From: an uncultured Candidatus Saccharibacteria bacterium
GTDB taxonomy: Bacteria; Patescibacteriota; Minisyncoccia; Phycocordibacterales; Zambryskibacteraceae
Direction: 5' to 3'
Assembly: GCA_964516975.1 (NCBI GenBank)
Contig: CAZFAS010000001.1
Span: forward strand, 118,500 to 182,499
Length of the DNA stretch: 64,000 nucleotides
The translations under genes were made by a program, and so were the position numbers. Below are positions 28,710 to 61,079 of the stretch, in pieces (the first letter of the stretch is position 1; the number at the start of each line of letters is the position of its first letter). The notes beneath the pieces were generated by a model. It was not told the DNA's origin. It searched no databases and was given only the letters and a program-made list of their open reading frames with translations.

Positions 28710-28737
28710 TTGACAAAACAAAATTTGATGATATAAT
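28710..28737 (+). promoter_or_regulatory. sigma70-like promoter (TTGACA-16-TATAAT)
   Basis: directly abuts terminator T-run; drives lipoprotein gene. Confidence 0.55.
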
Positions 28738-28766
28738 TGCTTCAAACGTTCATTCAAGGAGGTAGT

Positions 28767-29141
28767 ATGAAGACCCTGAAGGCAATCCTGTACCTGATCA
28801 CCATCATCGTTCTCGGTGCATGCGGGAATGTGTGGGAACAAGCTCGGTTTGAGCTTGTGATCATCAATCATAGCTCTGATGAGCTCATGATTACGGTCAA
28901 CGGTCGTGCCGTTGATCCCACAACGAAGGGTAATGAGACCCACCGTTACACTCCACGAGTCATCGTGGAGCAGCAGTACTACTACAACAACGGCTACTCG
29001 CCCGAGCCGCCAAAGTGTGCCACCTACATCGATGTTGTTGCGAAGAATCTTCGCAACAACGTACAGGTGCACAAGACCCTCTCAAGGGTCTGTCAGGACG
29101 AGACTCTCTCGCTCGATTTCTATTCGAACGAGTTCAAGTAG
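28767..29141 (+). CDS. small lipoprotein (lipobox LGAC)
   Basis: MKTLKAILYLITIIVLGAC signal/lipobox with AAGGAGG SD; ~52% GC; start at MKTLK not ORF-track start. Confidence 0.55.
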   Translation: MKTLKAILYLITIIVLGACGNVWEQARFELVIINHSSDELMITVNGRAVDPTTKGNETHRYTPRVIVEQQYYYNNGYSPEPPKCATYIDVVAKNLRNNVQVHKTLSRVCQDETLSLDFYSNEFK

Positions 29142-29149
29142 CCCCCGCC

Positions 29150-29192
29150 CCGCCCCGCAAGCTTTGCTTGCGGGGCTTCTTTTATATTTTTA
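29150..29192. terminator. rho-independent terminator
   Basis: CCCCGCAAGCtttgCTTGCGGGG + CTTCTTTTATATTTTT. Confidence 0.55.
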
Positions 29193-41117: not shown

Positions 41118-41232
41118 TGTCGTATCCTCTTTGTAAGTGAAAGAACTAACCGTGCTAGTATTATACCATAAATATTACATAATTGTCAAGTATGAAAAAG
41201 ACGTCTTGATATGTACCAAGACGTCTTGTTGC

Positions 41233-43790: not shown

Positions 43791-44258
43791 TTACTTGATT
43801 TCGAGAATCTTGTAGGTCACATTACCGCCCGGAGTTGAGAATGAGAATGACTCCCCCTTCTTTTTTCCCTGAGCGGCAGACCCTAATGGAGATTTGATTG
43901 AGATTTTGCCGAGAGACATATCAGCCTCTTCTGAACCCACGAGTGTAATGACCTTTTTATCCTTGTCACCCTCCTTCTGAATAGTAAGTGCTGAACCCAC
44001 AGACGCAACGCCAGTAGTATGTGCTGAAACGATAGTTGCTGTTTTAAGAATCATTTCAAGTTTTGCAATTCTATCTTCAACAGAAGCCTGCATATCACGT
44101 GCTTCATGGTATTCAGCATTCTCAGAAAGATCACCAAGACCCTTGGCATGCTCAAGGTTTTCTGCAACTTCCTTTCTTCGAACTGTTTTCAAATGATGTA
44201 ACTCATTTTTGAACTCTTCGAACTTTTCTTTGGTCAAATACTCGTGTTCGTCTTTCAT
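43791..44258 (-). CDS. greA: transcription elongation factor GreA
   Basis: N-terminal coiled coil with acidic tip, C-terminal FKBP-like domain. Confidence 0.85.
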   Translation of the reverse strand: MKDEHEYLTKEKFEEFKNELHHLKTVRRKEVAENLEHAKGLGDLSENAEYHEARDMQASVEDRIAKLEMILKTATIVSAHTTGVASVGSALTIQKEGDKDKKVITLVGSEEADMSLGKISIKSPLGSAAQGKKKGESFSFSTPGGNVTYKILEIK

Positions 44259-44273
44259 ATATATTAGCGAGTT

Positions 44274-44301
44274 ATTGTATGCTTTTAGGGGTAAAAGTCA
44301 A
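44274..44301 (-). promoter_or_regulatory. putative greA promoter (TTGACT-16-TACAAT)
   Basis: minus-strand -35/-10 hexamers upstream of greA. Confidence 0.5.
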
Positions 44302-44353
44302 CTTACCTACAAGAGTAATACGTGGGGCAATACAAAAGAAATATAAAAAACGC

Positions 44354-44381
44354 TTGACAATAAAATTGGGCATGCTATAAT
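44354..44381 (+). promoter_or_regulatory. strong sigma70-like promoter TTGACA-16-TATAAT (divergent from greA)
   Basis: cgcTTGACAataaaattgggcatgcTATAATagg. Confidence 0.6.
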
Positions 44382-44389
44382 AGGCGCAG

Positions 44390-44772
44390 AAAAAAGCAGT
44401 ACGTTCGAAACAAAAAGAGCGAAGCGAAAAAGATAAAAGAAGAAGCGAAGCAAGACTCAAGACCCAAGAGCCAAAAAAGTAGTACACGAGCGGGATCAAC
44501 CCGCCCGTGCCGCACTACAAGCAAGTGGGCTTGAAAGCTTGGTTATCCTCCGAATCCGGATTTGGGCCCGCGTTGGCCCAAGACGTGAGTCGGACAAATC
44601 TGCGACCACCGATAGAGGTGAGAGGTGGCGTGAGATCAAAAGGGAGTCTTGGCCAGGCTGCGGGATTTGAGTGCCACCTTTCGCTCGCCAAGTTAGTAAA
44701 GTCACTCGAGCATTTGCTCGTAGTGCACCATTGCCCCGTCACACATCCAGTGTGACGGGGCTCTTTCTTTGT
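44390..44772 (+). ncRNA. candidate structured noncoding RNA (~380 nt, GC-rich), identity undetermined
   Basis: consensus promoter upstream, purine-rich 5' ~100 nt then multiple GC stems, rho-independent terminator CCCCGTCACAcatccagTGTGACGGGG+T at 3' end; ~55-58% GC in low-GC genome; only a weak GTG-start ORF without SD. Confidence 0.4.
44472..44510 (-). terminator. terminator-like hairpin on minus strand
   Basis: CACGGGCGGGttgatCCCGCTCGTG + TACTACTTTTTT on minus strand. Confidence 0.45.
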
Positions 44773-44788
44773 CAAAAACTTTTTATCA

Positions 44789-46498
44789 TTATTTAACGTA
44801 TTGTGGTGTATTAATATACATCCACTCTAGAAGTTGGCGCATTACGTATGTTGCTCCGATAGTGTTTGTTCGATCTCCTCTTTCCATAAGTACAGCAAAA
44901 GCGAAACGTGGATTTTCGTATGGGAAAAATCCTGTGACCCATGAATTCACTTTTTGTTTTGTTACACCAAGCTCTGCTGTTCCAGTTTTGGCAGCGACGG
45001 ATATTCCAGGCATCGAAAGACCTTTCGCTATGCCCTCATCAACTGAAAGTTTCATCCCCTCTTTTACAATTTGGAAATGATCGCCTGAAAGTGCAAGCGA
45101 CACGGTATCTTTACTTTCTCGAGGGTTATTCAAAATCACTGTTGGACGAAGTAGTGTGCCATTATTTGCAAGTGACGCTACTGCGCGCACCGCTTGAATA
45201 GGCGTCACCTGAAAACCATACTGACCGATAGAACTATTATACGTATCACCGATTCTCCACGGATCCCCTTTAAACGTTGCAGCTTTCCATTCTGGACTCG
45301 GAATATTTCCCACCTTTTCGCCCAAAAGGTCTATTCCCGTATTACTACCGAAACCAAACATTCGTATATATTTTTCAATATTTGCTATACCAAGGCCTTT
45401 TTGACCGTTATATCCCCCGCCAATCGTATAAAAATATTCATCAGATGATTCTGCAATTCCTTGTCTCATATCCACCCATCCATGCACCTTCCAGTCTTTA
45501 AATATAGTTTTCTTCGTTGGATCGTATGGATTTGGAATACTAATATAACCAATACTTAAAATCTTCTTGAGTGGATCAATCAAATTCTCTTCAAGAGCAC
45601 CGAGAGCGATATATGGCTTTACGATAGACCCTGGAATATAGAGACCTGAAATCGCTCGATCAATAAACGGATTATTTTTATTGAGCAAGATTTCCTGAAT
45701 CGCTTTCGAATCTGTACCATCTGTCATCACATTGAGATCAAACTCTGGATAACTTGTTATAGCAAGTATTTCACCATTATGAATATCCATAATGACCCCA
45801 GATCCTCCAGAAAAACCTCGATCAATCGCAGTAGATTTGATCGATTCAAACAATTTATTCTGTACACCAGCATCTATAGAGAGTGTGAGGTTGGCACCAT
45901 CTTTCGGAGGTGTCAGTAAACTCTCAGACTGAATATTACCAAGTGCATCTGTTTCTGTAATCTTAAGGCCATTCGTTCCAAGAAGCTCATTATTATAATA
46001 CTCCTCAACCCCACCCTTCGGAGTAAATTTTTCTTCATAATAAAATCCAGATTTATCTTTCGAAGGATATTTCACGAATCCGAGCACATGAGCAAATCCA
46101 GCTTGATTTATATATTTTCGAAAAGAAAAATCGCTTCCCGGATTTAGCTCATTCCATGCAAGCTCTTTTTTATTTCTATCCAGTATAAGTCCACGATCAG
46201 CATATATCGTCGTATGCTTCAAATGGTTCTTGTCACTACGTATTTGAAAAGCTTCACCTTGTTTCACTTGGAGGACCCACATCCTTCCAGTAAAAACAAT
46301 ACCAATTATTAAAAATAAAATACCTGTCAGAAGAAATGTGGTCTTTGAGATTGGCTTTTCGAGCCTTCCCTCAAACTGATGAGTGTCAAAATCTGGTAAG
46401 TTTGAAGAATCAAGAAATATTTCATCGGGATCAATCGTCCCTTTTGTATCAATTACTCCAGAATGAAATATTTTTCTTTTGATTCTCTTAAAGGTCAT
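44789..46498 (-). CDS. mrdA: penicillin-binding protein 2 (elongasome transpeptidase)
   Basis: SIVKP, SxN, KTGTA motifs; follows mreBCD. Confidence 0.85.
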   Translation of the reverse strand: MTFKRIKRKIFHSGVIDTKGTIDPDEIFLDSSNLPDFDTHQFEGRLEKPISKTTFLLTGILFLIIGIVFTGRMWVLQVKQGEAFQIRSDKNHLKHTTIYADRGLILDRNKKELAWNELNPGSDFSFRKYINQAGFAHVLGFVKYPSKDKSGFYYEEKFTPKGGVEEYYNNELLGTNGLKITETDALGNIQSESLLTPPKDGANLTLSIDAGVQNKLFESIKSTAIDRGFSGGSGVIMDIHNGEILAITSYPEFDLNVMTDGTDSKAIQEILLNKNNPFIDRAISGLYIPGSIVKPYIALGALEENLIDPLKKILSIGYISIPNPYDPTKKTIFKDWKVHGWVDMRQGIAESSDEYFYTIGGGYNGQKGLGIANIEKYIRMFGFGSNTGIDLLGEKVGNIPSPEWKAATFKGDPWRIGDTYNSSIGQYGFQVTPIQAVRAVASLANNGTLLRPTVILNNPRESKDTVSLALSGDHFQIVKEGMKLSVDEGIAKGLSMPGISVAAKTGTAELGVTKQKVNSWVTGFFPYENPRFAFAVLMERGDRTNTIGATYVMRQLLEWMYINTPQYVK

Positions 46499-57819: not shown

Positions 57820-58050
57820 GTGCTCGACATTTTGTTGATCATTATCGATTCATCACTCCGCATTCTGCTGTTCGGCATCCTTGAGCTCGTCATCGCCTTC
57901 ACTGGATATGGTGAAGAAAACGAAGACAAGTTCTCACGGACACACTGCGTCCTGCGTGCGCGTTACAACGGCATGCGCATCACCTCCTATTCTACCTATC
58001 TTGAGTGGCTCAGCCACTACAAGGAGGCATGGAAGGAGGAGAGGGTGTAA
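57820..58050 (+). CDS. small hypothetical protein
   Basis: 76-aa ORF with hydrophobic N-terminus, followed by terminator. Confidence 0.3.
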   Translation: MLDILLIIIDSSLRILLFGILELVIAFTGYGEENEDKFSRTHCVLRARYNGMRITSYSTYLEWLSHYKEAWKEERV

Positions 58051-58063
58051 TACCCTCTCACTG

Positions 58064-58100
58064 GTCCGCCCGACACGAAGTGTCGGGCGGTTTCTTTTTG
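58064..58100 (+). terminator. rho-independent terminator
   Basis: CCGCCCGACACgaagTGTCGGGCGG + TTTCTTTTT. Confidence 0.6.
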
Positions 58101-60335: not shown

Positions 60336-60467
60336 ACCCCCTATCATACGCGATACCGTACTGTGCTCAACAGTACTTTTGATTTTCAAAAGATATCTGA
60401 TATTATCTTTCTGTTCTGCTAAAACAGAACCATTCCGGAGTAGCTCAGTGGTAGAGCGATCGCCTGT

Positions 60468-61027
60468 GTCGGAAAGTTCGTGGTATAATTGCTTGGTGTA
60501 TACCAAGAAAAAAAGATTAGAAAAATGAACTTACGCCGACCGTCGAGCATATATGGTAATGGCAGTAACAAGGAGAAGAAGAAAACTCCGTGAGATGGCC
60601 AGAGAACAAGCCGGCGGAAAATGTGCATTATGTGGCTACAAAAAATGTCAGAGGGCTTTAAGCTTTCATCACGTAAACCCTAAAAATAAGGATTTTGATC
60701 TTTCTTCAAGGGGTTTAACGAGATCGTGGGAACGTATTAAAAAGGAAATCGAAAAATGCGTTCTCTTGTGTGCAAATTGTCACATGGAAGTACATGAAGG
60801 CATTACGCAGCTTTCTATCAAAAGATAGATTGAAAAACGAGGTGAATTCGGGGAAACCCAATTATTGGGCAATCCCGAGCCAAGCTCTAATGAAAGTTGG
60901 AGAAGGTGTAGAGACTATCCTTTATGGAGTAGTGTCAAAAACTTGATACGAAGCGCCTCGATCCTAAGTTCCAGATTGGAATATGGATATGATATAGTCC
61001 ACGCTTCTAGCAATAGAAGAATCAGTG
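60468..61027 (+). mobile_element. group I intron (560 nt) with internal HNH homing-endonuclease ORF
   Basis: 5' exon ends in U, intron ends in G; conserved core elements P (AATTCGGGGAAA), Q (AATCCCGAGC), R (GTAGAGACTATCC), S (GATATAGTCCAC). Confidence 0.7.
60553..60828 (+). CDS. HNH endonuclease (intron-encoded)
   Basis: CxxC...HH..N...CxxCH zinc/HNH motif (CALCGY...SFHHVNPKNK...CANCHMEVH); extended -10 TGGTATAAT at 60477. Confidence 0.75.
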   Translation: MVMAVTRRRRKLREMAREQAGGKCALCGYKKCQRALSFHHVNPKNKDFDLSSRGLTRSWERIKKEIEKCVLLCANCHMEVHEGITQLSIKR

Positions 61028-61079
61028 TAAGCGATTGGTCGTAGGTTCGATCCCTACCTCCGGAGCATGCAAAAATCTT

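Follow-up and report, generated by a model that had tools for sequence, protein, structure and literature searches.

A putative structured non-coding RNA gene with a conserved core and a variable 5' arm in the mrdA-greA spacer of a Paceibacteria lineage

The 530 bp spacer between mrdA and greA in the DNA analysed here (a stretch of 64,000 nucleotides, called the window throughout) is best explained as the site of an independent non-coding RNA gene, belonging to a new, clade-restricted family, whose product would bind a partner and whose alleles would behave as a recombining cassette. We put the probability of this reading as a whole at about 0.6, with expression and mechanism being its predicted parts. 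The RNA is new in that it is the first recognised member of a family outside the Rfam families tested. The sequence-only reading that preceded this work had proposed an independent, structured, plus-strand RNA of ~380 nt at this place; the proposal is supported by the unit's own transcription signals, a conserved fold and the lack of a shared ORF, with the predicted length now ~385 nt. If the reading holds, the locus offers a clear case of a structured RNA gene specific to one lineage in a reduced CPR genome, together with an alignment, a model of the secondary structure and the covariance model R1. Its most notable traits are a selected core next to a free-running arm that keeps a repeated motif, and the apparent replacement of alleles by recombination within a species.

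The relatives of its GreA protein place the host lineage, as far as protein sequence goes, in the Paceibacteria/Parcubacteria (CPR), near Zambryskibacteria-like MAGs. The locus comprises lysS, greA, mrdA, mreD and mreC, the last two preceding mrdA (MreC by Pfam), and no gene for an RNA partner is linked to it. On the minus strand and divergent from the RNA gene lies greA (43791-44258; 155 aa; Pfam GreA_GreB_N and GreA_GreB, from an identical protein), for which a motif scan gives a promoter-like site at 44301-44274. On the other side, also on the minus strand and thus convergent with the RNA gene, mrdA (44789-46498) encodes a PBP2-type transpeptidase of 569 aa with the Pfam domains PBP_dimer and Transpeptidase. 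The GC-rich patch that had been claimed between the two genes is real, with a GC content of 0.54-0.57 across 44475-44774 (150-nt windows) versus 0.33-0.43 in the surroundings and 0.41 for the 64-kb window overall.

Five distinct alleles of the spacer are present in metagenome contigs, i.e., that of the window and four further ones that were obtained by way of protein neighbours. The allele of the L091 group is 97% identical to the window over the spacer, that of L093/L095 is 81% identical, and that of L097, whose GreA is 90% identical, is 73% identical; the route to the L166 allele was a C-terminal fragment of PBP2 at 94%. Ten contigs with an identical GreA carry an identical spacer in which no gene is called, and L162 and L169 repeat the window allele.

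Transcription signals and coding potential

The first indication of a separate transcription unit is a sigma-70 promoter on the plus strand at 44354-44381, made up of the -35 hexamer TTGACA (44354-44359), a 16-nt spacer and the extended -10 element TGcTATAAT (44373-44381). The sequence-only reading had named it as a TTGACA-16-TATAAT promoter diverging from that of greA, and it indeed agrees with the consensus at 12 of 12 positions, with the extended -10 in addition. Perfect TTGACA-N16-18-TATAAT sites occur three times in the 64 kb, where 0.07 would be expected, so this promoter is not a chance match. Among the window, L091, L093 and L097, neither the two hexamers nor the TG show any change, though neighbouring bases vary; in L166, the -10 and TG are likewise unchanged. 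Judging by the position of the -10, transcription would start at ~44388, and the ~385-nt transcript would end at an intrinsic terminator at 44733-44772; expression, start site, 3' end and abundance are all predicted from sequence.

The terminator, on the plus strand, has a 12-bp stem with nine G-C pairs, a 5-nt loop and a T-rich tail (GCCCCGTCACAC-ATCCA-GTGTGACGGGGC, then TCTTTCTTTG). The strong hairpin and T-tract described in the sequence-only reading are thus present, and they are also conserved, with two compensatory pairs: one G-C pair is replaced by A-U in L097 and L166, and one A-U pair by G-C in L097. Promoter and terminator are kept in every allele that covers them. The stop codon of the convergent mrdA is 17-28 nt away from the terminator, which probably serves both directions, ending the transcripts of the RNA gene and of mrdA alike.

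The predicted transcript contains no ATG. Its one ORF, a GTG-initiated frame of 82 aa (44507-44755, plus strand), had already been judged unlike a protein, and we reject it as a protein-coding gene since its frame is not preserved in relatives, being broken in L097 and L166, and since it extends across the terminator hairpin. A search of both strands for a shared stop-to-stop frame found none common to the five alleles. On the contigs that cover the whole spacer (L081-L096), the source pipelines annotate it as gene-free; on L169, a 62-aa fragment was called where the contig is cut off, and this is the sole gene call within the RNA region. Four translated frames were also joined into a chimeric query, aimed at miscalled ORFs lying over homologous RNA genes, which found no match among 5.8 billion protein clusters.

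Searches against known RNA families were likewise negative. With Rfam gathering scores, cmscan detected only a tRNA-Glu and a group I intron in the whole window, and at E <= 10 the interval 44250-44850 returned only a chance miRNA match on the terminator. Nothing relevant was found for the L093, L097 and L166 alleles at E <= 1, and the loci of twelve relatives gave no Rfam match. ARAGORN found no tmRNA in the window, and the sequence is without a T-arm or acceptor stem. RNase P RNA, SRP RNA and 6S RNA are rejected for want of a covariance-model match, and the earlier statement that the RNA is none of these nor a tmRNA is borne out by cmscan and ARAGORN together. A literature search on non-coding RNAs of CPR/Patescibacteria returned rRNA and tRNA introns and nothing beyond them that is relevant here. 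We would like to note that the window does contain a tRNA-Asn(GUU) gene (60434-61068, plus strand) that is split by a ~550-nt group I intron and was missed by ARAGORN; its exons span 60434-~60470 (5') and ~61023-61068 (3'), the Rfam Intron_gpI core lies at 60768-61020, and an ORF for an HNH-type endonuclease lies inside the intron at ~60530-60805. This split gene agrees with the group I introns described in Patescibacteria tRNA genes (PMC13011429).

Several other classes of element were considered and rejected. A riboswitch or cis-regulatory leader does not suit the arrangement, in which what comes after the terminator is the mrdA 3' end, in convergent orientation, and not a gene on the same strand. 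A DGR template, a retron, a type III antitoxin and a guide RNA (omega, bridge or TIGR) are rejected, as the locus has no neighbouring gene for a reverse transcriptase, toxin or nuclease and no array-like repeats. A MITE or other small mobile element is likewise rejected: the 31-nt imperfect inverted repeat (44335-44365 / 44764-44794, 71% complementary) is not kept in L097, and neither the window nor any of 85 other loci contains a second copy of the element.

Conserved core and variable arm

When the five alleles are folded together with RNAalifold, a conserved core of 215 nt emerges on the plus strand (44512-44726), in which a long interrupted closing helix surrounds four hairpins. The closing helix consists of P1 (44512-44527 / 44711-44726), P2 (44528-44532 / 44699-44703) and P3 (44536-44542 / 44688-44694), and the hairpins are P4 (44549-44594), P5 (44598-44636), P6 (44644-44659) and P7 (44669-44686). 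Two single-stranded stretches of the core, CAAAAGGGAG (44637-44646) and CCTTTCGCTC (44677-44686), are invariant, as is CCUUUCGCUC. The individual stems named from the window alone fared unevenly against this model. The GGTGGC...GCCACC stem is broken in two of the five alleles (L093 and L166), and its GGTGG instead pairs with an upstream CCACC, as part of P5, in all five. The CCG-gatt-CGG hairpin turned out to be the two lower strands of the longer hairpin P4.

Between lineages the core is 84-91% identical, where fourfold-degenerate sites are only 42-63% identical. For the window and L097, the core identity of 86.8% stands against 59-63% at the fourfold sites of greA and lysS; for the window and L166, 85.4% stands against 42% at those of mrdA. 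Since the core is conserved well beyond neutral sites, it is, on this comparison of alleles, under purifying selection.

The substitutions that do occur tend to respect the fold. Across the 68 pairs of the core, 95.9% of pair cells are paired, versus 28-40% when partners are slid, and 29 of 136 paired columns are variable (21%) versus 43 of 89 unpaired ones (48%). Three pairs are compensatory on both sides. Of 500 shuffles, 17 reached the covariation score and 25 the number of compensatory pairs; with only five alleles to draw on, we take these controls as suggestive and not decisive. The check for structural covariation at related loci that the sequence-only reading had put forward has yielded three compensatory pairs in the core and two in the terminator, a modest support from five alleles. 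Possible pseudoknots or alternative pairings join GAGCGAA of the arm to UUUCGCUC of the core, and AAAGGG to the P7 loop CC(A/C)CCUUU, all partners being invariant. A switch in which GCACUAC pairs with an upstream GUAGUAC is rejected, as it is not conserved in L097.

The strand had been called uncertain because of a terminator-like hairpin on the minus strand. That hairpin is present at 44510-44472, but the core folds better on the plus strand (-92.5 kcal/mol, z = -5.1) than on the minus strand (-74.4 kcal/mol, z = -2.8), and 13 pair columns contain a G.U pair somewhere, with 34 G.U cells versus 8 A.C. This excess favours the plus strand, although the count is biased in that the structure was derived on the plus strand.

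Upstream of the core lies a 5' arm of ~95 nt (44388-44483, plus strand), which is purine-rich (47% A, 7% U), predicted to be unstructured and fast-evolving. The earlier description of a purine-rich, unstructured 5' ~100 nt holds up, as the predicted folds of three alleles leave the arm unpaired. It carries AAAAAAGCAGTAC (44390-44402) and AAAAAAGTAGTAC (44473-44485), and in the window allele a 21-nt stretch is duplicated in tandem (44408-44449) and AGCGAA occurs three times. Between lineages, arm identity is only 55-68%, near saturation, yet every arm keeps GCAGTAC near +10, AGCGAA(G/A) motifs and an A-run ahead of the next element. In all five alleles the arm has three or four copies of AGCGAA, or three to five when the variants AGCG[A/G/C]A[A/G] are included, against an expectation of ~0.1 per arm as estimated from base composition. 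This enrichment could stem in part from tandem duplication and slippage in the arm and not from selection of a binding site. A search of the window for targets of the arm found no enriched complementary sites.

Between arm and core is a hairpin (44484-44510, plus strand; ACACGAGCGGG-ATCAA-CCCGCCCGTG). Read on the minus strand together with its U-run (44510-44472), it resembles a terminator for transcripts arriving from mrdA. L093 and L097 have a hairpin of unrelated sequence in the same position, and L166 has a weak hairpin only.

The abundance of stable stems in this GC-rich patch, from which a non-coding RNA had been argued, does not in itself discriminate. The other two perfect promoters of the window (28710 on the plus strand and 41160 on the minus strand) drive GC-rich, terminator-ended genes with good Shine-Dalgarno sites and signal peptides. 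Of the single-gene cassettes of this kind, one lies at 28710-29185 (plus strand, 124 aa), one at 41189-40490 (minus strand, promoter at 41160, 200 aa) and one, with a consensus promoter, at 40480-39700 (minus strand, 215 aa). All three have strong Shine-Dalgarno sites and intrinsic terminators, and the N-termini of their proteins, which match no Pfam family, resemble signal peptides or those of lipoproteins. The mRNA 28745-29140 is so rich in hairpins that its fold z-score is -7.1, versus -7.3 for the RNA candidate; as a coding cassette and the candidate score alike, the z-score is not diagnostic. GC-rich islands with a consensus promoter and a very low fold z-score are here mostly small secreted-protein genes, and these criteria alone do not identify non-coding RNAs. 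What sets the candidate apart from the coding cassettes is the lack of a reading frame, the selected core and the pairing-preserving changes. A further GC-rich ORF of 76 aa was seen at 57820-58050 (plus strand), with a GTG start after GAAGGAGG, a strong terminator at ~58068-58095 and no Pfam match.

Distribution and exchange of alleles

Of the 80 species-representative loci, the majority have mrdA ahead of greA in the same orientation, with 60-100 bp between the mrdA stop codon and greA. As the spacer of these relatives is 60-100 bp versus 530 bp here, the RNA unit is an insert in the spacer. Among the closer lineages (GreA 77-79% identical), L099, L175, L176 and L177 have short spacers and no RNA, and L098 has a 153-aa ORF in its spacer (L098:1915-2376) and no RNA. 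The spacers of a few other Paceibacteria lineages hold unrelated single-gene cassettes divergent from greA: that of L028 contains a divergent cspA-like gene (L028:3346-4000), and those of L027 and L058 contain small ORFs. On this comparison of loci, the RNA unit is a clade-specific accessory cassette in the mrdA-greA spacer. In L004 the spacer holds a 433-nt promoter-plus-terminator unit divergent from greA, which at L004:3440-3872 (minus strand; fold z = -5.1, no Rfam match) may represent another non-coding RNA.

Searches for more distant homologues returned none. Neither blastn nor nhmmer nor the covariance model R1 found a homologue beside greA in the 80 species-representative genomes, and the same three approaches found no relatives over 85 loci and the window. 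A metagenome scan with a two-block core pattern gave 61 matches, all of them chance by nhmmer, in a collection apparently without samples of this organism. Five scans of viral contigs with words from core and arm gave only chance matches, which lay in a GroES-like CDS, an RdRp-like fragment and unrelated phage DNA, and blastn against phages and plasmids gave no match. In one IMG/VR contig, which is RdRp-like, GTGAGATCAAAAGGGAG...GGCTTACAGAGCGCCTTTGC (L168:86-164) resembles the core from P5 to P7 with an nhmmer E of 0.08; the likeness is probably due to chance, as the contig was picked by a 17-mer and has no Rfam match. From these searches the RNA appears to be of narrow range, found in one clade only.

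Within this clade, L093 differs from the window in the RNA but hardly in the flanks. In the flanks, fourfold sites are 98.5% identical in greA and 90.8% in mrdA, and the terminator and the last ~90 nt of the core are 100% identical. From about -45 of the promoter to ~44686, in contrast, the arm is unalignable (~55%) and the core differs by ~9% plus indels. The L093 RNA is thus more diverged than the neutral sites that flank it, and we therefore take it to be a foreign allele imported by recombination; the pattern of sequence identity indicates an allele replacement between strains. Two contigs break within the promoter or arm, as expected for a polymorphic site.

An insert of 180 bp, which the window lacks, lies between the mrdA stop codon and the RNA terminator at L091:720-899, L093:1787-1966 and L169:1133-1312. 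Its limits are marked by a duplicated 32-bp stretch from the 3' end of mrdA, it contains the internal repeat AAATTTGAACGGGC twice, and it has the appearance of a small integrating element with the 3' end of mrdA as its target. As it is found with three different RNA alleles, the population is mosaic. On the 1.6-kb contig L169, the 178-aa PBP2 C-terminal fragment (L169:115-1131) is preceded by a gene of the Lip_A_acyltrans family and not by the rest of mrdA, which reflects either a rearrangement or a chimeric assembly.

Interpretation, rival explanations and known RNA systems

As an independent gene, the RNA would act by binding a partner, and not through translation or the control of a downstream gene. 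The 215-nt core would be a folded domain for recognition, scaffolding or stability, and the arm a multivalent single-stranded platform that titrates, as a sponge or decoy, either a complementary RNA or an RNA-binding protein. The sequence of the arm drifts freely, yet three to five copies of AGCGAA(G/A) are always kept. Alleles of the cassette are exchanged between strains by recombination. The repeated AGCGAA in an unstructured arm resembles, by analogy, the logic of protein-titrating sRNAs. A bolder version, which we consider a long shot, is that of a conflict-driven, diversifying RNA with a conserved scaffold and a hypervariable motif arm, its alleles being swapped between coexisting strains. 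If true, the RNA could set specificity or serve as a decoy, either in defence against phages or in the interaction of a CPR symbiont with its host, and would represent a new class of RNA-based accessory system without a linked protein gene.

Four rival explanations were weighed, and each fits the data less well than an independent non-coding RNA gene. Given its convergence with mrdA and a terminator 17-28 nt from the mrdA stop codon, the unit might be a cis-acting module that insulates the convergent mreBCD-mrdA transcript and shields the greA promoter, or an antisense RNA to a long mrdA 3' UTR through which RNase III tunes mRNA stability; the minus-strand hairpin and U-run, kept in position with unrelated sequence in L093 and L097, suit this idea, and mrdA read-through beyond the first hairpin would be fully complementary to the core. 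Yet relatives without the cassette manage with 60-100 bp, the minus-strand terminator is weak in L166, and neither the conserved four-hairpin fold with its plus-strand-only G.U pairs nor a motif-bearing arm would be needed, so we hold such a module to be rather unlikely. The same minus-strand hairpin, whose form becomes canonical once the stem is extended by GUAGU/ACUAC, could alternatively end a functional RNA of the minus strand, i.e., a structured mrdA 3' UTR or an sRNA derived from it, and the minus strand of 44466-44790 does beat its shuffles (z = -5.6). This we regard as very improbable, given the far worse fold of the core on that strand, the 34 G.U cells that would become C.A mismatches (a count biased by deriving the structure on the plus strand), and the perfect, conserved promoter and U-tailed terminator, which define a plus-strand unit.

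A highly diverged housekeeping RNA lying beyond the reach of the Rfam models in CPR, for example a 6S/Ms1-like RNA that binds RNA polymerase and is processed from an A-rich leader, would account for the strong consensus promoter, for a ~215-nt core closed by a long 5'/3' helix behind a dispensable-looking leader, and for the proximity of greA, whose product binds RNA polymerase; the poor coverage of CPR non-coding RNAs in the searchable literature leaves room for it. It is nevertheless unlikely. Four alleles gave no Rfam match to 6S, RNase P, SRP or tmRNA (E <= 10 for the window allele), the comparative fold is a multi-branch junction and not a rod with a central bubble, the RNA is absent at this locus in lineages with GreA at 77-79% identity, and polymorphism within a species is unusual for an essential RNA; the linkage to greA looks incidental, because the spacers of other lineages hold unrelated cargo. 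Narrow range and polymorphism within the species would also fit a dispensable or decaying element, and the unit might be the remnant of a GC-rich accessory protein cassette that has kept its promoter and terminator, amounting to transcribed junk or a pseudogene. The window's other two perfect promoters do drive GC-rich, terminator-ended signal-peptide genes without a Pfam match, and with z = -7.1 for one of their mRNAs, richness in hairpins is typical of such cassettes. However, identity is 85-87% in the core against 42-63% at neutral sites, hence the purifying selection; substitutions keep the pairing through compensatory changes and G.U transitions; a reading frame, a Shine-Dalgarno site and an ATG survive in no allele; and the translated frames are without a match among the 5.8 billion protein clusters. 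We thus think decay quite unlikely.

Among known systems, the independent RNA gene that we prefer may be compared with four groups. Like convergent cis-antisense RNAs, it converges with its neighbour, mrdA, and has one strong hairpin between both genes, but it does not overlap the mrdA coding region and its conserved fold is strand-specific. With 6S and Ms1 RNA it shares a promoter of the abundant type, a length of ~200 nt once a possible leader is discounted, and a long irregular helix that brings the two ends together. In contrast to these, it is without a central bubble, its interior being a junction of four hairpins; it has no Rfam 6S match, is confined to one clade and is polymorphic within a species. 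CsrB and RsmZ are likewise stand-alone, promoter-to-terminator non-coding genes with several copies of a motif (here three to five of AGCGAA(G/A)) on a fast-evolving scaffold, and the number of motifs differs between strains. The motif here is not GGA, however, and sits in an unstructured arm instead of in hairpin loops; the conserved folded core of 215 nt has no counterpart in CsrB, and there is neither a CsrA-like partner known for this organism nor an Rfam Csr/Rsm match. Unlike raiA, OLE, ROOL and GOLLD, to none of which it has a sequence or structure match in Rfam 15, the RNA has a much narrower distribution, and it is smaller than OLE, ROOL or GOLLD; similar to all four, it was detected as a GC-rich intergenic island of conserved structure in an AT-rich genome. 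By analogy, its working principle would come closest to that of sponge-type sRNAs and of these other orphan GC-rich structured RNAs.
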